Part shown: positions 2,643-25,258 of the stretch, in pieces | Numbering within the stretch: position 1 is the stretch's first letter | Layout of the letters: each line of letters starts with the position of its first letter | Assembly: GCA_031406795.1 (NCBI GenBank) | Contig: JANOHV010000265.1 | Coordinates: 1-35,624, forward strand | Source: Candidatus Rokuibacteriota bacterium | GTDB taxonomy: Bacteria > JAUVQV01 > DATDCY01 | Direction: 5' to 3' | DNA: 35,624 bases | Notes under the pieces: model-generated | What the model was told of the DNA's origin: nothing | Seen by the model: the letters and a program-made list of their open reading frames with translations, nothing else | The model's database searches: none | Program-made: the position numbers and the translations under genes

Positions 2643-5144
2643 TCAGCTGCCGTCACTGGTGCGGAGGAAGTCCGCGGGGCGGCGGCGGAGTACCGGCAGC
2701 GACGCCGCAAGCCCGACCCCGATGGTGATCAGCGTGGTCAGCGCCACCACCGCGAGGCTCGATGACAAGAACGGGTGCCAGCGCAGATTCAGCCGCCAGG
2801 TCGCGATCCCCCAGGTGATCGCCTGCGCGAACACCAGCGCGAGCACTCCGCTCGCCAGGCCGACGAGCGCCCCCTCGAGTGCGAAGACCAGCAGCACGAA
2901 GCGCGAACTGGCGCCGAGGATCCGGTAGTGGACCGCTTCGAGGAGACGGGCGCGCCGCGTCGCGAGCACCGAACTGGCCGTGATCAGCAGTCCGGCCACG
3001 ATCCCGAGCAGCGTGAAGAAGCGGATGATGCCCGAGAGCCGCGCGACCAGCGTCGCGGCTTGCGCGGCCGCGGCGCCGACGTCGACGACGCTCACGTTCG
3101 GGAACGCCGCCGCCACGCGGTTCTGCGCCGGCAGGGTCTCCCCCTTCGGGACGCGCGCGGCCGCGAAGACCGTTTGCGGCGCCTTGCCGAGGACCGCGGT
3201 CGGGAAGACGAAGTAGAAGAACGGCCGCGGCGAGGCGTCGGTGCGCCGCCGGATGCTCGACACCACCGCGTCGACGGAGACGCCCTGGACCCGGAACGTC
3301 ATCCGGTCGCCGATCTTCAGCGGGGCCATCTCGAGAACCTCCTCGAGGATCGAGACCTGCGCCCCGGCGATCCCGGAATCGAAGAGCGCGGGACCACGCG
3401 TCAGCTCCTCGTCGGCCAGCAGCGCCTCGCGATAGGTCAGATAGAAGTCGCGCCCGAAGTTGTCGCGGGGTTTGCGGCGCTCCCGCTCGCGCTCGATGGC
3501 GGCACCGTTGATCGCGGCCACCTGTGCGACGACCACCGGGTAGAATTCCGCCGGCGTCCCGAGCGTCTTCGCGAATTCCCCGAGCTGCGCCGGCTGCAGG
3601 TCGAGGAAGAAGAGGTTGGGCGCGTCCGGGGGGTACGACTGCACGAATTGGGCGTCGAGCGTGCGCTCGAGCAGGCCGATGGCCAGGATCACCGTGAGCG
3701 CCGCGGTGAGCGTCACGATCACCGGCCGCGTGGCGTTGCCGGGCCGGAAGAGACCCCGCAGCGCCTGGCGCAGCGGCAGCGCGCGCACGGGGAGCCGGCG
3801 CGCCAGCCGCAGCAGCCCCTCGGCGCCGAGGGCGGCCAGCGCGATCAGCCCGACCAGCCCGCCGAGCAGCCACAGGCCGAGCTTGAGGTCGCGCACCTGC
3901 CAGAGCACGAGGGCGCCGATGAGCGCCGCGGCGAGGCCCCCGCCAAGCCAGAACGGGAGCTGACGGGGCAGGCGCGCCGGGTCGCGGCGAAAGATCGCAA
4001 CTGGCGAAATCTCGCGCAGCCGCCAGAGCGGCAGAAAGGCGAACAGCCCGGTCACGATCGCGCCGAGGGCGAACCCCTCGAAGACCGTCGCGGCGGCAAG
4101 TTGAGGGCGCAGGCCCCCGGGGATCAAGCCGGAAAAAAGCGGGAAGAACAGCACCTGCAGCAGGTAGCTGCCGGCGATCCCGAGCAGCGTGCCGAGCGCC
4201 CCGAGGATCGCAGCCACCGCCAGGTACTGCGCCATCACGAAGCCTCCCGGCGCACCGAGCGCCTTCATCACCGCCACGGTGTCGCGCTTCTCGCGCAGGA
4301 AGGCCGTCAGCGCGCTCTGGATGCCGATCCCGGAGAGCAGCAGCGTGAAGGTGCCGATCAGCGAGAGGAAGAAGAGGAAGTTGTCGAGGAACCGCTTGGG
4401 GCCGGAACTGGCGGTGAGGTAGGTCTGGACGCGCTCCGCATCGGGGAGGGCTGCTGCGCCGAGACCGGCGGCGACCCGGCCGATCGCCGCCGGGTCGCGG
4501 ACCTTGAGCAGCAGGCGGTAGTCGACACGGCTCCCCTGCCCGATCAGGTCGAGGCGCCCGAGCTCGGACGCGGCGATGAAGACCCGCGGCCCGAGCGAGA
4601 AGAACGTCACCGGACGGTCGGCCTCGCGCACCGCGACATCGGCGATCAGCAGCGGCCGGCCCCCGAGCAGCAGACGATCGCCCACGCGCAGCCCAAGGCG
4701 GCCGAGAACCGTCTCCTCGACGATCGCCGTCCCCGGCTGAAGTATCCTGCCGAAGGGGCGCCCCGACGCGAGCGCGACCTCCCCGTACCACGGGTAGCCG
4801 GGCTCGACGGCCTTCACGTTGGTCAGCAGCGAACCTTCGCGCCCCTCGGGCGTGACCATCGAGTAGAACTCCCAGGTGCGCGCGGCGGAGACTTCGCCCC
4901 GCCGTGACAGCGCGTCGACGGCGCCGGTGAGGCCGGGGGAGAAGTCGCGATGCGCGTGCAGGATGACGTCGGCGGCGTGCAGTCCGCGCGCGTCCTGCAG
5001 CAGCCTCGCGTTCACGCTGCGGCCGAAACCGCGCAGCGAGACCAGCGCGAGCATCGAGAGCGCGACGCAGAGCAGGAAGATGCCGGTCTGGCTCCCGGCG
5101 CCGGAGAACTGGCGGCGGATGAAGCCCGGGTGCAGCAGTCTCAC
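2643..5144 (-). CDS. ybbP: ABC transporter permease, YbbP-like (two FtsX domains)
   Basis: 833 aa with two MacB/FtsX repeats (VAVMKALGA, YRILGAS), APNLFFLDLQP motif, adjacent to ABC ATPase and tesA. Confidence 0.88.
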   Translation of the reverse strand: MRLLHPGFIRRQFSGAGSQTGIFLLCVALSMLALVSLRGFGRSVNARLLQDARGLHAADVILHAHRDFSPGLTGAVDALSRRGEVSAARTWEFYSMVTPEGREGSLLTNVKAVEPGYPWYGEVALASGRPFGRILQPGTAIVEETVLGRLGLRVGDRLLLGGRPLLIADVAVREADRPVTFFSLGPRVFIAASELGRLDLIGQGSRVDYRLLLKVRDPAAIGRVAAGLGAAALPDAERVQTYLTASSGPKRFLDNFLFFLSLIGTFTLLLSGIGIQSALTAFLREKRDTVAVMKALGAPGGFVMAQYLAVAAILGALGTLLGIAGSYLLQVLFFPLFSGLIPGGLRPQLAAATVFEGFALGAIVTGLFAFLPLWRLREISPVAIFRRDPARLPRQLPFWLGGGLAAALIGALVLWQVRDLKLGLWLLGGLVGLIALAALGAEGLLRLARRLPVRALPLRQALRGLFRPGNATRPVIVTLTAALTVILAIGLLERTLDAQFVQSYPPDAPNLFFLDLQPAQLGEFAKTLGTPAEFYPVVVAQVAAINGAAIERERERRKPRDNFGRDFYLTYREALLADEELTRGPALFDSGIAGAQVSILEEVLEMAPLKIGDRMTFRVQGVSVDAVVSSIRRRTDASPRPFFYFVFPTAVLGKAPQTVFAAARVPKGETLPAQNRVAAAFPNVSVVDVGAAAAQAATLVARLSGIIRFFTLLGIVAGLLITASSVLATRRARLLEAVHYRILGASSRFVLLVFALEGALVGLASGVLALVFAQAITWGIATWRLNLRWHPFLSSSLAVVALTTLITIGVGLAASLPVLRRRPADFLRTSDGS

Positions 5145-19727: not shown

Positions 19728-20759
19728 ATGACCAAACGCATCCTCGTGACGGGCGGCACCGGCTACATCGGCTCCCACACGGTCGTCGAGTTGCAGAAGG
19801 CCGGCTACAATGCCCTCATCGTCGATGACCTTTCGAACTCCAACATTGGCGTGCTCGACGGCATCCAGGAGATCACCGGCATCCGGCCGGCCTTCGAGCG
19901 GTTCAACCTGCAGCACCGCGAGAAGGTCAACGGGCTGTTTTCATCCTACGGCCCCATCGACGCGGTCATTCATTTCGCCGCCTCGAAATCCGTCGGCGAA
20001 TCGGTGAGCAAGCCGCTCGACTACTATCGGAACAACCTGATTTCCCTGATCAACGTGCTCGACGCGATGCGCACCTACCGGACCGCCGGCATCGTCTTCT
20101 CATCGTCGTGCACCGTCTACGGCCAGCCCGGGACACTGCCCGTCACCGAGGAGGCGCCGTTCCAGAGGGCGGCATCGCCCTACGGCAACACCAAGCGCAT
20201 TTGCGAAGAGATACTCCAGGACGCCATCGCCGCCGAGGACTTCCTGCGCGGCATCGCGCTGCGCTATTTCAACCCCATCGGCGCCCACCCGAGCGCACTG
20301 ATCGGTGAGTTGCCTTCAGGGATCCCCGACAACCTCGTCCCGTACATCACGCAAACCGCGATCGGAGTCCGGAAGGAGCTGCGCGTCTTCGGCGACGACT
20401 ACAATACGCCGGACGGCAGCTGCATCCGCGATTACATCCACGTCGTCGATCTTGCGCAGGCTCACGTCGCCGCCGTAAGCCGGCTGCTGGAGAACCGGGC
20501 AAAGTCCGCATTCGAATACTTCAATATCGGCACCGGCACCGGCTATTCGGTACTCCAGGTCGTCCGCGCCTTCGAGAAGGTCTCGGGGGTCAATCTCAGC
20601 TACCGCATCGTCGATCGCCGCCCCGGCGACATCGAGCAGGTCTGGGCCGACACGAGCCTCGCCAATCGCGAGCTGGGCTGGAAAGCCGAACGCGGCCTCG
20701 AGGAGATGCTGGCGTCAGCGTGGAAGTGGGAGCAGCGCTACCGCAAGCGGTCGGTGTGA
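19728..20759 (+). CDS. galE: UDP-glucose 4-epimerase
   Basis: TGGTGYIGSH, HFAA.KSVGES, FSSSCTVYG, YGNTK, LRYFNPIGAH, DGSCIRDYIHVVDLA, RRPGD. Confidence 0.96.
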   Translation: MTKRILVTGGTGYIGSHTVVELQKAGYNALIVDDLSNSNIGVLDGIQEITGIRPAFERFNLQHREKVNGLFSSYGPIDAVIHFAASKSVGESVSKPLDYYRNNLISLINVLDAMRTYRTAGIVFSSSCTVYGQPGTLPVTEEAPFQRAASPYGNTKRICEEILQDAIAAEDFLRGIALRYFNPIGAHPSALIGELPSGIPDNLVPYITQTAIGVRKELRVFGDDYNTPDGSCIRDYIHVVDLAQAHVAAVSRLLENRAKSAFEYFNIGTGTGYSVLQVVRAFEKVSGVNLSYRIVDRRPGDIEQVWADTSLANRELGWKAERGLEEMLASAWKWEQRYRKRSV

Positions 20760-21059
20760 CGCCAGGATAATGCGGCGGAACGATTCACTCGTCGCCGCCC
20801 ATTCAACCAGATCAACACGGAAAGGAAGGTCGCTTTCTTCGAAGGCCTCCTCGAGACCGGTACGTACCCCTCGAGGGAGCGGATCGTCTCCGAGGACAAC
20901 CAGGTCGAGATCAGAATAACGTTTGACCGTTCCCACAGCCCGGGAACCAATCACCCACACCTCGCGTCCGGGGATGTGATCCCGGATAATCCGCCGCACC
21001 AACTCCGCGTGAACCGGTTCGAGATCGATCACCCCCGCCACTTCAGTATCATTCGCCAC
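20715..21059 (-). CDS. Minimal nucleotidyltransferase (MNT) antitoxin; native 3' end probably lost at a junction
   Basis: GS-x10-DLD (GSRAVGTVKRYSDLD), SDLPFRVDLV; GTG start inferred (21059 or 21032); last codons run antisense into galE. Confidence 0.85.
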   Translation of the reverse strand: MANDTEVAGVIDLEPVHAELVRRIIRDHIPGREVWVIGSRAVGTVKRYSDLDLVVLGDDPLPRGVRTGLEEAFEESDLPFRVDLVEWAATSESFRRIILASHRPLAVALLPLPR

Positions 21060-21468
21060 GGCGTGCCTGCAAACGTGCCAACAGATCGGTGACTTCGCGT
21101 TCGAAACCGGCGATGACGGCGTAGACCTCGGCCGCCTTTCTTGCATTGTAGGTGTGGGCCGTGAGATTCCGCTTTTCCCGAAACTCAAACCATGCCGGGA
21201 CATCGACTATGAGGCCCCTTTCCCCGGCAACCCGAAAAAGCTGCTTGAAAGAATAGCCGTCGATTTCCGCCGAACTCATAGCCTCGCGCTCCATCTGGCG
21301 CTTCAACATCTTCCAGGCAAGCTCGAAGGTGTACTCGAAACGCTGGATGCAGGCATCGCGCAATTCCTCATCCCCTGGTGTGCCGGCTGACCGCAAAAGT
21401 GCGCGGCGCAGGCTCGTCAGCGCCCCCTCCAGCGAGGTGAAATCAAGTGGGGCCGGAGAGTTGCTCAT
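21049..21468 (-). CDS. HEPN-fold nucleotidyltransferase substrate-binding protein (HI0074 family), putative toxin
   Basis: RDACIQRFEYTFELAWK and RNLTAHTY (R-x4-H-x-Y); overlaps the MNT gene. Confidence 0.9.
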   Translation of the reverse strand: MSNSPAPLDFTSLEGALTSLRRALLRSAGTPGDEELRDACIQRFEYTFELAWKMLKRQMEREAMSSAEIDGYSFKQLFRVAGERGLIVDVPAWFEFREKRNLTAHTYNARKAAEVYAVIAGFEREVTDLLARLQARRGE

Positions 21469-21541
21469 CGATCGCTCGATCCCTTCCATGCCTTGCATTC
21501 TAACTTATATCCCCCGTTGAATGCAGCCTCACGCCTTGAGT

Positions 21542-21830
21542 CGCGTACTCGTTCTCCCTGACCAGGTTCCCCGCTGCCTCGAGCACCTCCAGGGCCAGAT
21601 CGAACTCGAGCCGCCCGGCCCGCATGCCGGTCGCCAGGACATTCCGGAACTCACTGCGCCAGAGCAAGGGAACCGACCCAAAGGGTCCCTGTTCAACACT
21701 TGCTCCGCTATCCCGGTTCCAGTCGATGGCAGGTAGAGACCGACAATGAGGGTGGTGTCGGCAACGATCACGGACGACCCGTGTGCCGTGCTTCGGCGAT
21801 CTTTTCCAACGACAGGGGATGACCGCCCAC
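21542..21830 (-). pseudogene. vapC: vapBC fragment: antitoxin C-terminus plus frameshifted N-terminal part of a PIN toxin
   Basis: ...LSLEKIAEARHTGRP* overlapping GTG of VIVADTTLIVGLYLP...RDP, frameshift, then VPLLWRSEFRNVLA...LVRENEYA, truncated. Confidence 0.8.
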
Positions 21831-21937: not shown

Positions 21938-23056
21938 ATGGTCAATGTCCGCCGGTACCTCTTCGGCCAACTGCGACGCGACCTCGCGCGCAAGATGGTC
22001 TTCGTCGCCGGACCGAGACAGGTCGGTAAAACCACTCTCGCAAAAAGCCTGCCGGGCGCCGCAGCCGGTTACCTGAACTGGGACATCGCAGAGCATCGGG
22101 AACGAATCCTCAGGCGCGAGCTGCCGGTGGGTCCGCTCTGGATCTTCGATGAGATACATAAATATCGGCCCTGGCGGAATTACCTCAAGGGTCTTTTCGA
22201 TGCTCGACGCGCGGGGCAACACATTCTCGTGACAGGCAGCGCGCGGCTGGATCTCTACCGCCGCGGCGGCGACTCCCTCCAGGGACGTTACCATCTCCTG
22301 CGCATCCACCCCTTCTCGGCCAGGGAACTCGGAATCCGCTCCCCGTCGGAGTTGCGCGATCTGCTGGTCCTCGGTGGCTTCCCCGAGCCGTACTTCAGTG
22401 GGTCGGAAGCCGAGGCCCGGCGCTGGTCGCGGGAATACCGCACTCTGATTGTGAGAGAGGAAGTCGCGGATCTGGAGCGGGTCCAGGACCTCGGCACCCT
22501 CGAGTTGCTCGCCTTACGGCTGCCCGATCTCGTCGGGTCCCCCCTCTCCGTCAACGCCCTCCGGGAAGACCTCCAGATCAGCCACAAGACAGCCTCGCGC
22601 TGGATCGATATCCTGGAACGCCTCTATGCTGTGTTCCGAATACCTCCCTTCGGAGCGGCCCGCATCCGCGCCGTGAAGAAGGAACGGAAGCATTACCAGT
22701 GGGACTGGTCAACGGTACGCGAAGAACCAGCCCGCTTCGAGAATCTGGTCGCCGCTCACCTGCTCAAATGGGTGCATTACCGTCAGGACGTGGAAGGGCT
22801 TGATATCGAACTGCATTACTTCCGGGACACCGATGGACGGGAGGTGGACTTCGTGGTCGCCGAAAACCGCACCCCGACCCTGATGGTGGAGTGCAAATGG
22901 GGCGATCAACCCGTCGACAAGTCCCTGTTCTACCTCAAGGCCCGTTTCCCGGACTGTCCCGCCTGGCAGGTGAGCATGACCGGCATCAAGGACTACCGCA
23001 CTGTGGAGGGCATCCGGGTCGCGCCGGCACTCGCGCTTCTCGGGACATTGGTGTAA
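21938..23056 (+). CDS. AAA-family ATPase with DUF4143 / PD-(D/E)XK-like C-terminus
   Basis: GPRQVGKTT, IFDEIH, VTGSA, SLQGR, GGFPE, FENLV, YFRD..GREVDF...VECK. Confidence 0.9.
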   Translation: MVNVRRYLFGQLRRDLARKMVFVAGPRQVGKTTLAKSLPGAAAGYLNWDIAEHRERILRRELPVGPLWIFDEIHKYRPWRNYLKGLFDARRAGQHILVTGSARLDLYRRGGDSLQGRYHLLRIHPFSARELGIRSPSELRDLLVLGGFPEPYFSGSEAEARRWSREYRTLIVREEVADLERVQDLGTLELLALRLPDLVGSPLSVNALREDLQISHKTASRWIDILERLYAVFRIPPFGAARIRAVKKERKHYQWDWSTVREEPARFENLVAAHLLKWVHYRQDVEGLDIELHYFRDTDGREVDFVVAENRTPTLMVECKWGDQPVDKSLFYLKARFPDCPAWQVSMTGIKDYRTVEGIRVAPALALLGTLV

Positions 23057-23059
23057 TCC

Positions 23060-23340
23060 AAAACAACTCGCTCGGCCCCCGACAAAAACCTCAGGCGCCA
23101 CGGCCCTCTCGGGAAATGCCTTGAGCACCTGGCAATCCGACGTCACCTGCAAGGCGTTCAACCCTTCCTCCAGGGCGACAAACTCCCAGTCGTACGCGCT
23201 GCGGCCGCTCACGGCGGCCAACTCCAGGACCTTTTCGTCCGGAACCGCGTACTCGTTCTCCCTGACCAGGCCCCGGGGGACCGCCCACCCGAGCCCGCAG
23301 ACGACGTGCGTTGACGAGAGCATCCTCGACCCGGACCACC
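23060..23340 (-). pseudogene. vapC: Internally deleted vapBC: antitoxin middle joined to the PIN toxin C-terminal part
   Basis: VRVEDALVNARRLRARVGG followed by LVRENEYAVPDEKVLELAAVSGRSAYDWEFVAL...VTSD..VLKAFP; no start or native stop. Confidence 0.78.
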
Positions 23341-23420
23341 ACCGCGAACGGGATCCAAGTGGGAACAGCGCTACCGCAGCAATTGACCTCTACGTGCCTC
23401 CGTCATCTATTGCTTTCATG

Positions 23421-23484
23421 AAAAAGAGATTCCTTGCGTCTGTTCAGGGTGCTCTCAATTGAATCCAAGTCAATCCTCTTCTGT
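23421..23484 (-). terminator. Long imperfect stem-loop ending in a U-run (possible terminator or 3' domain of the ncRNA)
   Basis: Minus strand AAGAGGATT..CTTG..TTCA...TGAA...CAAG.AATCTCTTTTT. Confidence 0.4.
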
Positions 23485-23489
23485 ATAGT

Positions 23490-23675
23490 CCGGAGACGCG
23501 GAGCCATTCAGCTATCGTGCTCTTCGGCTAAGGTTGCTCCCATGCTCTTCGGATGGAGTCTGGCTCTAAGCCGGACACGTGGGGTGTCAACCCTCAATGT
23601 AAAGGCTCTCACAGAAGCCATGGTCTGGGCTATGACCTGTCACCAGATCATTCGCACCTGCTCCCCTGTCTCCGG
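23490..23675 (-). ncRNA. Candidate structured ncRNA downstream of the DIP1984-like gene
   Basis: Closing helices CCGGAGAC/GTCTCCGG and GGAGC/GCTCC enclose several hairpins including ATGATCTG-GTGA-CAGGTCAT; CCGAAGAGCA occurs twice; no credible ORF. Confidence 0.6.
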
Positions 23676-23682
23676 TTCCCTG

Positions 23683-24222
23683 TTACTCGTCCTGATAATC
23701 CACCACCGCCTCAAAAGACGCGCGCCGCAGCTTTCTGTTCAGCTCTCTGAAAGCCAACCTCGCCTCTTCCAGATTCTTGACGCATTCAACGTAGGGAACT
23801 TCACTTTCCTCGATAATGTCCCGGCCCTCCTTGTAAATCACCCGCTGGTAGGCTGAGCTCACAACCTGAGTGTGGAGCTCGCCGATCCTTTCGTTTATCG
23901 CCTTGCGAGCATCCAGGGCTTCGCTCAAATTCACGGCTTCACCGCCAAGGTCGATACGGCAATCGAAGTTGGCCTTCTGGATCGAGCTGTTGAGTTTGCG
24001 CCGCTTATATTCCAATTTCCTGAGCTGCTCGCGCGTCTCGGACACATCGAAGGTAGGGCTGGGACGCCGCATTCCCTCATCTTCTCTCGACAACATGAAT
24101 TTGTTCTTATTCTGTTTCGATTCAGGCAGGCAGTCTTTTAGAGTCTTGGTCCTGGCGTCGTACTCGGCCCGGAGTTCCAAGGCCTCGTACAAGTACAATC
24201 GTTTCTTGATAGCGTCGACCAT
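23683..24222 (-). CDS. Helical/coiled-coil protein resembling the DIP1984 family
   Basis: Twice-repeated L.EAL..R motif (LYEALELRAEY; LSEALDARKAI) and KLN..IQ.ANF / ELNRKLRRASF; family assignment from recall, not a search. Confidence 0.65.
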   Translation of the reverse strand: MVDAIKKRLYLYEALELRAEYDARTKTLKDCLPESKQNKNKFMLSREDEGMRRPSPTFDVSETREQLRKLEYKRRKLNSSIQKANFDCRIDLGGEAVNLSEALDARKAINERIGELHTQVVSSAYQRVIYKEGRDIIEESEVPYVECVKNLEEARLAFRELNRKLRRASFEAVVDYQDE

Positions 24223-24256
24223 GTCAAATCCCCCCCCTCGCCGTGGAATGTGGCAA

Positions 24257-24281
24257 AAGCGACGTCGCTTCGAGAATCATA
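24257..24281 (-). promoter_or_regulatory. -10 box and perfect 14-bp palindromic operator candidate
   Basis: TATGAT (24281-24276) followed by AAGCGACGTCGCTT (24257-24270). Confidence 0.5.
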
Positions 24282-24324
24282 ATGCCAGCAAAATCTCTTC
24301 GTGACCACGCTTTCATGCGATTCT

Positions 24325-24693
24325 TCAAACTGCCATCCCCGCCAGCGCGAAACGCTCCAGCATCCGGCGCGGCCACCACTTTTTCGTCCCCTCCAGAGTC
24401 AGGGCGGGCACGTCGTTGCGGACATAGGCGGTTGTGGTCACCACGTCGTACACGGGAGCCATGGTCACGGGCCCCTCGGGGGATGGGTACAGGACACCGA
24501 AATTTTTCAAGTGCGCATCGCCGTTCCTCACCATCACCGAAAGAACAAGCGAAGAAAAGAACTGCTCCCTGGCCGCCAGGAGATGCTCGCCGTGTATGAA
24601 GTCGCGAATGCTCTTCGCCACCCGCTCGTAGCTGCTGGTGTATTTTTGCGGCGTCCCCAAGGCCTGGAGGCTGCAAAAATCCTCAAAACCCAG
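24325..24693 (-). pseudogene. hipA: HipA kinase internal fragment
   Basis: LGFEDFCSL...KY..SYE...RNGDAHLKNFG...MAPVYD; lacks the N-terminal half, a credible start and hipB. Confidence 0.85.
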
Positions 24694-25053
24694 CTACAGT
24701 CCGAAAACGTCCCGCAGACCCAGCTTCACGCGCGCAAAATCCTCCGGATGGAGTGTCCCGAGAACGCGCTTGATCAGTGCCTTCTCGACGGCAAGAATAT
24801 TCGAGATCCGCGCCGTGCTGGGATGCTGCAGGCCGACAGCCTGCCAATGTTTCAGAGGATAGTCGCCGGCACCCGGACTGCGGTAGTAGCGCGGTTGGCT
24901 GCTGATAGGGACTACAATCACGTCCGCGATCTTGTCGTGGATCGCAACCACGCTCACCACGAGCGCCGGACGCGGCTTGGCTCCCCCCTGACCGGTAAAG
25001 GGGACGTTCACGACGACCACCTGACCGTGTCTACAGGTAGTCGTAGAGGGCAT
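24694..25053 (-). CDS. PemK/MazF-family toxin
   Basis: GQVVVVNVPFT....KPRPALVVS...VIVVPISS...GL..PS..R; ATG overlaps the antitoxin end. Confidence 0.9.
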   Translation of the reverse strand: MPSTTTCRHGQVVVVNVPFTGQGGAKPRPALVVSVVAIHDKIADVIVVPISSQPRYYRSPGAGDYPLKHWQAVGLQHPSTARISNILAVEKALIKRVLGTLHPEDFARVKLGLRDVFGL

Positions 25054-25258
25054 CTTCTTCGTTTTCCCATGCCCGAGCAAGCTTCCTCCCGGCAAGCTGC
25101 TTCCACTCCAACTCCTCAAGATCCTTCTCCGACAGTGGCTGAATGATGGCATAGGGCTTGCCGTGGTGAGTGACAACGATAGGCTCGCTGTTCTTCCGGG
25201 CTCGCGCAAGATATTCGGACAGCCCGTCCCTCACCTCCGCCACGCTCGCAAAACGCAT
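25031..25258 (-). CDS. Phd/YefM-family antitoxin
   Basis: SVAEVRDGLSEYL...EPIVVTHHGKPYAII; acidic tail WENEEDALYDYL; AAGGAG RBS. Confidence 0.9.
   Translation of the reverse strand: MRFASVAEVRDGLSEYLARARKNSEPIVVTHHGKPYAIIQPLSEKDLEELEWKQLAGRKLARAWENEEDALYDYL

Follow-up and report, generated by a model that had tools for sequence, protein, structure and literature searches.

The window, the whole stretch of 35,624 nucleotides that was analysed, carries on its minus strand an open reading frame of 179 aa (23683 to 24222) and, 7 nt past its stop codon, a structured RNA of 186 nt (23490 to 23675). The frame, identified from the list of open reading frames and by its Pfam match, ends in a confirmed TAA stop codon (23685-23683) and is preceded, a few bases 5' of the ATG, by a G-rich stretch (24229 to 24240, minus strand) that reads as a putative Shine-Dalgarno sequence. 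The protein matches PF20935 (DUF6847) with 34 bits, above the curated cut-off of 27, and the match is partial, joining profile positions 63-139 of 141 to residues 7-88 of the protein. Because it scores only 35.8 bits with the NCBIfam model DIP1984_fam (NF038048), under the cut-off of 70, the window protein is, judged by its sequence, a member of a sister subfamily of DIP1984_fam and not a typical member.

The AF2 model of the protein has a pLDDT of 84.9 and finds 3kdq as its best fold match (Foldseek TM 0.69-0.81, E 1e-4). VIA-align superposes the two over 150 residues with a Z of 13.0 and an rmsd of 2.9 A, the runner-up reaching Z 9.2, while the sequence of the protein has no match in the PDB. 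The fold is common to the window protein and the DUF6847/DIP1984 family, whose members have about 150 aa whereas those of the RNA-linked subfamily have about 178. A symmetric homodimer was modelled with a score of 0.52 (best control 0.01), a mark attained by 20 of 30 proteins solved as homodimers and by 1 of 23 solved as single chains, and a pass that may be partly memory since the related crystal entry 3kdq exists. Contact agreement in the dimer model is at least 93 % and the partner pLDDT at least 81.

DUF6847 is the only Pfam domain of the protein. Neither Pfam, with no ToxN-type match, nor the fold searches, which give only 3kdq, point to a ToxN/AbiQ-type endoribonuclease, and both likewise found no nuclease, TROVE or membrane domain. 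Among the PADLOC-DB 2.0 defence models the protein matches only LeoBC, at chance level (E 0.008, 13.3 bits). A relation to HEPN, considered for an R-x4-H in helix 3, was rejected on the grounds that the R is unconserved in the alignment. Our literature searches found no reported function for the DUF6847/DIP1984 fold. Members on Acinetobacter plasmids carry the annotation 'septicolysin' according to a search listing.

The RNA matches the covariance model R1 over its full length with 162.5 bits (E 2e-49). It is closed by a helix, P1, that pairs CCGGAGAC (23668 to 23675) with GTCTCCGG (23490 to 23497), the last conserved bases of the unit. P2 pairs GGAGC (23660 to 23664) with GCTCC (23500 to 23504), and P3 is a hairpin (23632 to 23651) with the GNRA tetraloop GTGA. 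In pseudoknot 1 (23604 to 23627), CAG (23627-23625) pairs with CTG (23614-23612) and crosses the pairing of GGCT (23619-23616) with AGCC (23607-23604). In pseudoknot 2 (23574 to 23593), GGG (23593-23591) pairs with CCC (about 23584-23582) and crosses GACA (23588-23585) with TGTC (23577-23574). All these strands are read from the minus strand.

Covariation supports this core of two pseudoknots, closing helix, second helix and GNRA hairpin. Compensatory changes occur in five of the seven modelled pairs of P1 (97.1 % of cells paired), in four of the five of P2 (100 % paired) and in all seven of P3, whose result was replicated in an independent sample and whose loop is GNRA in nearly every alignment row. 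Within pseudoknot 1 they occur in two of three pairs of helix 6, a helix absent from the model that built the alignment, and in four of four of helix 7. For pseudoknot 2, helix 9 is compensatory in four of four pairs and helix 8 is weak (1/3, 84.5 % of cells paired). Across the alignment 94.1 % of cells are paired versus 79.7 % in shuffles, and compensatory changes are found in 27 of 35 pairs, a count matched by none of 500 shuffles; slid controls reached at most 46.5 %. The independent sample gave 95.4 % versus 83.5 % in shuffles, with 17 of 29 pairs compensatory. G-U pairs are consistent with the gene strand only, and a scan of all column pairs returned, beyond the helices already known, only G-U-dominated noise. 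A 190-nt stretch folds with a z of -2.94 (none of 200 shuffles as good), and a 291-nt stretch that includes the downstream flank, with a z of -0.96, does not fold better than all of its shuffles. The first 20 nt of the RNA are almost invariant even across protein clades that are about 36 % identical, a hint that they are recognised by a factor under stronger conservation than the protein, or that they belong to a tertiary or catalytic core with strict requirements.

Much of this architecture had been read from the letters in an earlier note: the position and length of the RNA, the closing stem, the GGAGC/GCTCC stem and the GNRA hairpin stand, the conserved and covarying structure being found where that note had proposed to look, downstream of protein homologs. 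The GGCT/AGCC stem at 23619-23604 is confirmed by covariation and becomes one stem of a pseudoknot. A further hairpin proposed as GGGT-TGAC-ACCC corresponds to the weaker stem of the second pseudoknot. GGCT-TAG-AGCC fails to appear in the alignment of relatives, which has CCGGnAAAGC at that place.

The 3' third of the RNA is occupied by an A/C-rich region (A 0.35, C 0.30, G 0.20) that is predicted to be single-stranded. By spacing counts and autocorrelation, positions 23505 to 23571 of the minus strand form an array of about 8-9 tandem units of 8 nt ending in AGC (or A-R-C). The two copies of CCGAAGAGCA at 23552-23543 and 23527-23518, first taken for loop motifs, are present and are units of this array. 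Across RNAs the AGC-to-AGC spacing is 8 nt in 122 cases, 9 nt in 32 and 15-17 nt in 111, and the autocorrelation peaks at lags 8, 16 and 24-25.

The array comes in two types. AGC-type units are found in 132 of 139 complete RNAs, whose partner proteins are 50.8-100 % identical to the window protein. The remaining seven (eight with L215) carry UUAC units every 7 nt on the same RNA core; their partner proteins, where detected (L100 has none), are 35.8-38.5 % identical to the window protein, and that of L215 has 49 % identity to that of L005. That the array motif switches with the protein clade argues, indirectly and at the level of sequence, for coupling of protein and RNA, the switch being a single split between two clades and thus one event, not statistics.

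Similarity between loci runs from the start codon to the last base of P1. The second long stem with a U-run that had been described further downstream lies beyond the usual end of this similarity, was not reported by the terminator scan and is unseen in relatives. The 9-mer GCTTTCATG does occur as a direct repeat at 23412-23420 and 24309-24317, and its proposed role as border of the unit is not upheld: it lies outside the conserved unit, and such repeats are within chance because 8.8 % of the 934 control flank pairs taken from the window share a word of at least 9 nt. Only diverged fragments of conserved genes (66-80 % identity) are shared with the three same-genus genomes, so insertion borders are unreadable. 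A promoter had also been counted as part of the unit; the scan for sigma-70-like promoters returned 0 sites.

To what extent gene and RNA occur together was estimated from both sides. Starting from the protein in species genomes and searching with the RNA model, we found the RNA behind the DUF6847-subfamily gene in 80 of 81 sources, and in the sole miss, L078, the gene is truncated. All 82 model matches lie on the gene strand just 3' of the stop, with a median gap of 11.5 nt to P1. For the RNA-first sample, 80 metagenome contigs were chosen by a 19-mer motif of the RNA alone; 66 of them contain the RNA, and where the contig leaves room a full gene lies upstream in 48 of 54 places and a truncated remnant in 4 of 54. 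Thirteen of the 80 loci have no model match at E <= 0.001, 12 of which look like a chance 19-mer in unrelated sequence, and L172 was left out of the real matches as weak (18.9 bits). The thirteenth, L127, looks like a truncated RNA of the second type. L006 (G035) was set aside as a chance DNA match.

Seven canonical full-length DUF6847 loci were examined and, unlike those of the window subfamily, have no RNA beside them (best 10 bits, filters off). The RNA is found without an intact gene at L168, L100, L098, L106, L117 and L150, and L083 has two extra copies, while no intact subfamily gene without RNA was found where the contig leaves room. Orphan RNAs together with the lack of RNA-less intact genes argue, indirectly, for coupling, as does the modelled homodimer. 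The proposal that gene and RNA travel together holds, as one inherited unit across phyla.

The distribution is patchy and covers, as the records label them, Desulfobacterota, Latescibacterota, Gemmatimonadota, Spirochaetia, the PVC group, Planctomycetota and others. Archaeal carriage may be a binning artefact, as the RNA stretch of L024, from a Thermoplasmata MAG, is the same as that of L018, from a Desulfatibia MAG. No phage origin was found: the RNA 19-mer has 0 matches in IMG/VR, and protein relatives were found neither in IMG/VR nor in INPHARED (tblastn). Some DUF6847-like clusters in the ESM Atlas do include Uroviricota members, a possible lead. Among neighbouring genes the DUF6847 cluster alone recurs (81 loci), every other cluster occurring in at most 10 loci, and the conserved neighbours include no recombinase or reverse transcriptase. 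The surroundings are often rich in toxin-antitoxin genes, with HipA_C, PemK and Phd in the window and HTH, PIN, TacA, Fic and MqsA among 140 neighbours.

The RNA appears to be new, as the first reading had supposed. Rfam 15 covariance models at gathering score give 0 matches in the whole window; on 23300-24400 they give only a chance snoRNA match (E 6.4), and on the RNA of 10 further loci no match. We found no prior publication of it in Rfam 15 or in full-text searches for DUF6847/DIP1984, the conserved strings, defence-island RNAs and Latescibacteria RNA motifs, supplements lying outside these searches.

Three groups of known systems offer comparison. In type III toxin-antitoxin systems (ToxIN, CptIN, TenpIN), RNA repeats of about 34-36 nt lie upstream of the toxin, with a terminator between, and the toxin cleaves them as an endoribonuclease. 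As in the window module, a protein gene is joined to a cis-encoded RNA built on short tandem repeats, RNAs may survive on their own but the protein is unseen without RNA, and the distribution is patchy, often amid other toxin-antitoxin genes. However, the RNA described here lies 3' of the frame in 82 of 82 matches, has units of 7-8 nt and folds into a core with pseudoknots that a long-range helix closes; its protein, a helical bundle of the DIP1984 fold, has no ToxN-type match in Pfam. TRAP (GAG/UAG repeats), HutP and CsrA with its CsrB/RsmZ sponges are oligomeric proteins that read evenly spaced short motifs. Their RNAs resemble the window array in having many regularly spaced motifs of 3-4 nt in unstructured RNA, and by analogy the array fits multivalent binding by a protein oligomer. 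These systems differ in proteins and motifs, and their RNA takes the form of a leader or comes from a sponge gene of its own, whereas the window RNA is an obligate 3' appendage of its protein's gene; we know of none with a structured core like this one. Gene-adjacent dedicated structured RNAs are also found with Rsr/Ro60 (Y RNA), TnpB/IscB (omega RNA/HEARO) and the Oap proteins (OLE RNA). There too one protein family is tightly coupled to one structured RNA; Y RNA is likewise closed by pairing of its 5' and 3' ends, and the omega RNA of TnpB likewise adjoins the end of the frame. Unlike these RNAs ours has no Rfam 15 match, its protein lacks nuclease, TROVE and membrane domains, and the unit has no transposon ends.

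The conserved RNA, its structure, its periodic array, the strict linkage to one protein subfamily and the limits of the unit are observations. The account that we favour, tentatively and short of calling it probable, is that the frame and its 3' RNA are a self-contained, co-inherited module whose products cooperate as a ribonucleoprotein. The gene would be transcribed together with the RNA, whose core of P1, P2, GNRA hairpin and two pseudoknots would close a single-stranded loop of about 70 nt displaying some nine short motifs at even intervals (AGC, 8 nt apart). Several dimers of the small basic helical protein may bind the comb of each RNA, and the resulting complex may be a defined one in which the RNA keeps the protein inactive or regulated. 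In its logic the pair would resemble type III toxin-antitoxin or abortive-infection systems, with a new architecture, and toxicity or a role in defence is conceivable; a toxin-antitoxin pair, a defence module and an RNA-scaffolded oligomer are all live hypotheses. Several points count against this account, among them the near-invariant 5' end of the RNA, the single split behind the array switch, the chance-level PADLOC match and the further protein of some lineages treated below. One RNA copy per mRNA, 3' of the frame, would be an unfavourable antitoxin dose if the RNA did not survive longer than its message. Within the phylum of L031, 26 of 151 genomes have the gene, mostly as a single copy and with conserved synteny, which is not typical of a selfish element.

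Alternatively, the RNA may be the main actor, an autonomous non-coding RNA (a ribozyme, or a decoy or sponge for a conserved host factor or sequence-specific endoribonuclease) with the frame as helper or co-traveller. We consider this unlikely, if worth keeping in mind. The 5' segment near-invariant over phyla and both protein clades would suit such a role, as would the orphan and extra copies without an intact frame and a complexity, in two pseudoknots and a GNRA loop, typical of ribozymes and riboswitches. In RNAs of the second type the UUAC units are also similar to UUACU, the site reported for Kid/PemK-type toxins. Yet the RNA is almost never found away from the gene subfamily (48 full plus 4 truncated genes in 54 places), is absent beside canonical DUF6847 genes, has no match to an Rfam ribozyme or riboswitch, and shifts its array motif with the protein clade.

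Rather improbable, in our estimate, is a purely cis-acting 3' UTR element, one that terminates transcription, protects the mRNA from 3' exonucleases or serves autoregulation, and that forms no separate particle. The RNA does begin 1-24 nt past the stop in most loci, and RNA-library contigs bridge the end of the frame and the RNA (X2, 23518-23779 with 5 differences; X3, 23604-24025), which would also suit the co-transcription of the favoured account. This support is weak, since a contig is no proof of transcription. Runs X1 and X3 leave some of the window stretch uncovered. A T-rich run follows P1 in 50 of 79 copies but is absent in the other 29, the window included. P1/P2 taken as a terminator 'hairpin' would enclose about 170 nt, and the terminator scan gave an internal stem only. 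An RNA of 186 nt with two pseudoknots and a periodic array of constant length far exceeds the needs of a terminator or stabiliser, and the tandem extra copies of L083 and RNAs that outlast their frame would be senseless for an element serving only its own frame.

The pair may also represent a larger system in reduced or incomplete form, one to which a further protein, here called X, belongs and, in some lineages, also a regulator of the XRE-type HTH kind; the function would then not be understandable from two parts alone. This we regard as doubtful. Protein X, of about 375 aa, lies about 20-60 nt 3' of the RNA in L062-L065, L076, L084, L160 and L100, and L052 keeps a remnant of it. The X of a second-type locus is homologous to that of the PVC clade (E 1e-9), where an HTH gene lies upstream. 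The X family comprises 607 proteins and equals the DUF6847 subfamily, with 510 proteins, in size and conservation. It has no Pfam, PADLOC or NCBIfam family, and its AF2 model (pLDDT 65) gives nothing above TM 0.12 in Foldseek. With X behind the RNA in some lineages, the two-part picture may be incomplete. However, X is missing at most collected loci and was not found in the window's genome or in any of 5 further genomes that carry the module, 4 of which are labelled as whole chromosomes.

A mobile-element or intron remnant, or a functionless chance fold, is largely refuted and highly improbable: a patchy distribution and a flanking 9-nt direct repeat would suit it, but the RNA is single-copy in its own genome, the conserved neighbours hold no recombinase or reverse transcriptase, the repeat is at chance level outside the conserved unit, and strong purifying and compensatory evolution is evident.

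Returning to the ribonucleoprotein module, we hypothesize, with somewhat more reserve than for cooperation as such, a new ribonucleoprotein class, widespread in Bacteria (also labelled in some archaeal MAGs), in which the RNA core and its length-constant comb of 7-8-nt units would seat a fixed number of DIP1984-fold dimers and the RNA would serve as ruler or scaffold, or as cis-encoded antidote. If true, this would be a fourth architecture for RNA-antitoxin systems and a first functional handle on the DUF6847 ('septicolysin') fold. If correct, the analysis adds a well-supported class of structured RNA, about 185 nt long, which combines two pseudoknots with an unusual type of periodic array, and ties it to a protein fold that was solved in 2009 (3kdq) and for which our searches returned no reported function. 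Nature already supplies both halves of a specificity swap, since the AGC array (8-nt spacing) and the UUAC array (7-nt spacing) each go with a separate protein clade. The finding would widen the known ways in which a gene-adjacent RNA controls or scaffolds the protein of that gene, and suggests that large RNAs can lie concealed 3' of small 'hypothetical' genes within toxin-antitoxin islands.

The window encodes, on the minus strand, a 179-aa ORF (24222-23683 in the ORF list) preceded by a G-rich stretch that reads as a candidate ribosome-binding site. Pfam places the protein in DUF6847 at 34 bits (cut-off 27), over profile positions 63-139 only, and the NCBIfam DIP1984 model scores it at 35.8 bits, under its cut-off of 70. 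The AlphaFold2 model (pLDDT 84.9) shows a bundle of four helices plus small beta-hairpins, and its sole clear structural relative is 3kdq, a C. diphtheriae protein of unknown function (TM 0.69-0.81; Z 13.0, next chain 9.2); a sequence search of the PDB with the window protein returned no match. Modelled in two copies, the protein is predicted to form a symmetric dimer with a score of 0.52 (best control 0.01), to which memory may contribute because the crystal structure of a relative exists. The dimer score mark is reached by 20 of 30 benchmark proteins solved as one-chain pairs and by 1 of 23 single-chain proteins; contact agreement is at least 93 % and partner pLDDT at least 81.

A structured RNA (23675-23490, minus strand) starts 7 nt past the stop codon, and the fold proposed for it in the earlier note, with a closing helix (P1), a second helix (P2), a GNRA hairpin (P3) and further stems, was reproduced. 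The 190-nt stretch folds better than 200 of 200 shuffled sequences (z -2.94), and extended into the flank it does not beat shuffles (z -0.96). The earlier note had recognised no known RNA family, and Rfam 15 agrees, with no match at gathering scores in the entire window and only a chance snoRNA match at E <= 10 around the RNA site. Both gene and RNA are present once in the genome. RNA-library contigs from two studies span the ORF end and the RNA at 98 % identity (runs X2, 23518-23779, and X3, 23604-24025), although such contigs cannot reveal ends, strand or level and may reflect DNA carry-over.

The window protein is a member of a tight subfamily whose proteins measure about 178 aa, with 510 matches at E <= 0.001 among 726 candidates, 66-97 % identity among the 120 matches listed and 192 matches in a 50 %-identity representative library. 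Among species genomes, scanning turned up 110 relatives; the best 80 (L007-L086) were kept. They are labelled Desulfobacterota, Latescibacterota, Gemmatimonadota, Spirochaetia, Verrucomicrobiota/Victivallales/Kiritimatiellia, Planctomycetota, Chloroflexota, Nitrospinota, SAR324 and others, including three archaeal-labelled MAGs. The same conserved, covarying RNA lies 3' of nearly every relative's gene. A covariance model trained on 77 copies gave 82 matches across 81 sources, every one on the gene strand and immediately 3' of the ORF; P1 follows the stop codon at a median distance of 11.5 nt (range 1-163). The only one of the 81 sources without a match is L078, with a truncated gene; L073 has a truncated gene and a partial RNA, and contig ends cut L009, L045 and L082. 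In the phylum of locus L031 the gene occurs in 26 of 151 sampled genomes (20 essentially full-length, the rest fragments), as one copy per carrier except for one genome with a single broken copy in two pieces. The unit is present in three of the 61 genomes surrounding the window's own (G000, G044, G012), and it was not found in the phage collections IMG/VR and INPHARED. The RNA stretch and flanks are identical between a Desulfatibia MAG (L018:3065-3270) and a Thermoplasmata-labelled MAG (L024:1709-1914), which points to a binning artefact or a very recent transfer; L004 and L023 (Lindowbacteria record), likewise identical, are probably the same genome.

The fold is supported by covariation. 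RNAalifold recovered P1, P2 and the hairpin with compensatory changes in 17 of 23 pairs. In a model-based alignment to which two pseudoknot stems were added manually, 94.1 % of 2789 cells are paired compared to 79.7 % after shuffling (0 of 500 shuffles that high), and both sides change in 27 of 35 pairs (400 such cells, 91.7 expected); this alignment is biased towards nested stems because these were in the model, from which pseudoknot stem a and the weak GGG/CCC stem were absent. Sliding the 3' partners as a control gave at most 46.5 % paired. Support is good for P1, P2, P3, the two stems of pseudoknot 1 and, in pseudoknot 2, the longer stem; for the GGG/CCC stem of pseudoknot 2 it is weak. 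The independent RNA-first set described below repeats the result (95.4 % vs 83.5 % paired, 17 of 29 pairs, 0 of 500 shuffles). Since G-U pairs are frequent, the RNA strand is the gene strand. No reading frame is consistently open, with 3, 19 and 9 of 141 copies stop-free in the respective frames.

Rich in A and C and poor in G, the 3' third of the RNA is built of about nine tandem 8-nt units ending in AGC or A-R-C. AGC-to-AGC spacings are 8 nt (122 times), 9 nt (32) and 15-17 nt (111), with autocorrelation maxima at lags 8, 16 and 24-25. The two copies of CCGAAGAGCA that had been read as loop motifs are present, as two units of this array. RNA length is near-constant in this AGC type, at 180-189 nt by anchors or 205-216 nt including flanks. 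A diverged clade of the subfamily (L005, L215, L101, L109, L122, L129, L146, and L100 as RNA only) shares the 5' end, 3' end and hairpin and has a different middle with UUAC units, spaced by 7 nt (13 times) or 8 nt (3 times) and with 0-2 AGC per array. The AGC type accounts for 132 of 139 complete RNAs, with partners 50.8-100 % identical to the window protein, and the UUAC type for 7, or eight counting L215; partners were detected for 6 of the 7 (35.8-38.5 % identity), L100 having none, and that of L215 is 49 % identical to that of L005. The partition of array type by protein clade is perfect, yet it is a single evolutionary split. Canonical full-length DUF6847 genes occur in 5 of 301 sampled genomes, and no such RNA was found beside them at 7 loci (best 10 bits, filters off).

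Sampling by RNA instead of protein, a 19-nt motif of the 5' end matched at least 119 stretches of metagenome contigs, and 80 were taken. Of the 80, 67 match the model, 66 of them strongly; among the remaining 13, without a match at E <= 0.001, 12 seem to carry the motif by chance in unrelated sequence, and L127 resembles a truncated RNA of the second type. Two of these contigs, L108 and L155, unrelated to each other, share a conserved leader-like sequence about 60-110 nt past the chance match, upstream of an ORF whose start resembles a signal peptide; this sequence is possibly a riboswitch or leader and is unrelated to the DUF6847 RNA. In 54 RNA places the contig has room for the gene and does not break off inside it; there the gene is full in 48, truncated in four (L098, L106, L117, L150) and absent in two (L100, L168). 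A Candidatus Uabimicrobium chromosome (L083) has one gene and three RNA copies (3502-3703, 4047-4253, 4263-4467), the second and third retaining only the last ORF codons and each terminating in a T-run. RNA without an intact gene thus occurs, while an intact gene without RNA was never found, an asymmetry that is only suggestive because the protein-first and RNA-first samples were drawn differently.

Between pairs of loci, DNA similarity sets in no more than about 40 nt from the start codon and most often stops no more than 10 nt from the last P1 base (226 alignments in the 0-10 nt bins). In all-against-all ORF clustering, two clusters alone recur, that of DUF6847 (81 loci) and its antisense shadow; all other clusters hold at most 10 loci each and reflect synteny of close kin. 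The unit is therefore the ORF and RNA alone. Other borders and signals suggested earlier did not hold: the 9-nt direct repeats lie outside the unit, and an equal-length shared word occurs in 8.8 % of 934 control flank pairs; a sigma-70-type scan found no promoter; and the second terminator stem was not upheld.

Some loci have a further conserved protein 3' of the RNA. This protein X (about 350-380 aa) starts about 20-60 nt past the RNA in six PVC-group loci (L062:1066-2202, L063:2285-3421, L064:3758-4897, L065:3734-4861, L076:3740-4879, L084:1931-3052), in L160 (343-2, minus strand) and in the second-type L100 (1092-2138). It has 42 invariant alignment columns, 607 relatives and no family in Pfam, PADLOC or NCBIfam, and was not found in the window's genome or five other carrier genomes. 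Its presence may point to a version of the system with three parts. In L052 (Victivallales) only a 45-aa remnant is left, followed by a 367-aa protein (3818-4918) with a weak NTP_transf_2 match (E 1.3e-4).

The families that occur most often in the 140 nearest neighbours are PhyH 14 (synteny within Latescibacterota), HTH_31 6, HTH_3 5, DUF4019 4, PIN 4, DUF402 3, and TacA, Fic and MqsA 2 each. In the window, an apparently truncated 111-aa HipA_C fragment (24325-24660, minus strand, profile positions 90-183 of 213) adjoins a PemK/MazF-like ORF, which overlaps a Phd/YefM antitoxin ORF (24694-25258, minus strand); the unit thus lies within an island of toxin-antitoxin genes, at least one of them decayed. 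Overlapping ORFs at 20715-21498 (minus strand), a minimal nucleotidyltransferase (NTP_transf_2, E 3e-11) and an NTase_sub_bind/HepT-like protein (E 4.8e-35), have the composition usual for HEPN-MNT toxin-antitoxin pairs. Two identical 25-nt direct repeats (21542-21566 and 23246-23270, 1704 nt apart) lie on either side of an AAA_14/DUF4143 ATPase gene (21938-23056; PADLOC PDC-S01); it looks as if the ATPase cassette inserted into an older gene, duplicating part of it, and the remnants of this gene lie just 3' of the RNA.

As the likeliest mechanism, we hypothesize that the RNA is made together with the mRNA, that its core holds in place a single-stranded comb for repeated binding by protein dimers, and that the dimer-bound RNA would sequester or organise the protein. 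A type III-like toxin-antitoxin logic would fit three observations: RNAs without an intact gene, additional RNA copies, and surroundings rich in toxin-antitoxin genes, in the window the HipA_C fragment and PemK/Phd. In type III systems, however, the RNA lies upstream of the gene, the protein is a ToxN-type nuclease and the units are about 35 nt, whereas here the RNA is downstream, the protein is not ToxN-type and the units are 7-8 nt, differences that argue against simple membership. Alternatively, though with lower probability, the RNA may target a conserved host component or be catalytic, a reading kept alive by the near-invariance of the RNA 5' segment across both protein clades, which the dimer-and-comb model does not explain.

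The core observation of the earlier note, a gene with a folded RNA downstream, stands, and its suggestion that the two act and move together is borne out as far as sequence comparison reaches, gene and RNA apparently being co-inherited as one unit. The structured RNA class is real and obligately linked to one DUF6847 subfamily, and it appears to be undescribed. Taken together, these results show a two-part module under strong joint selection.
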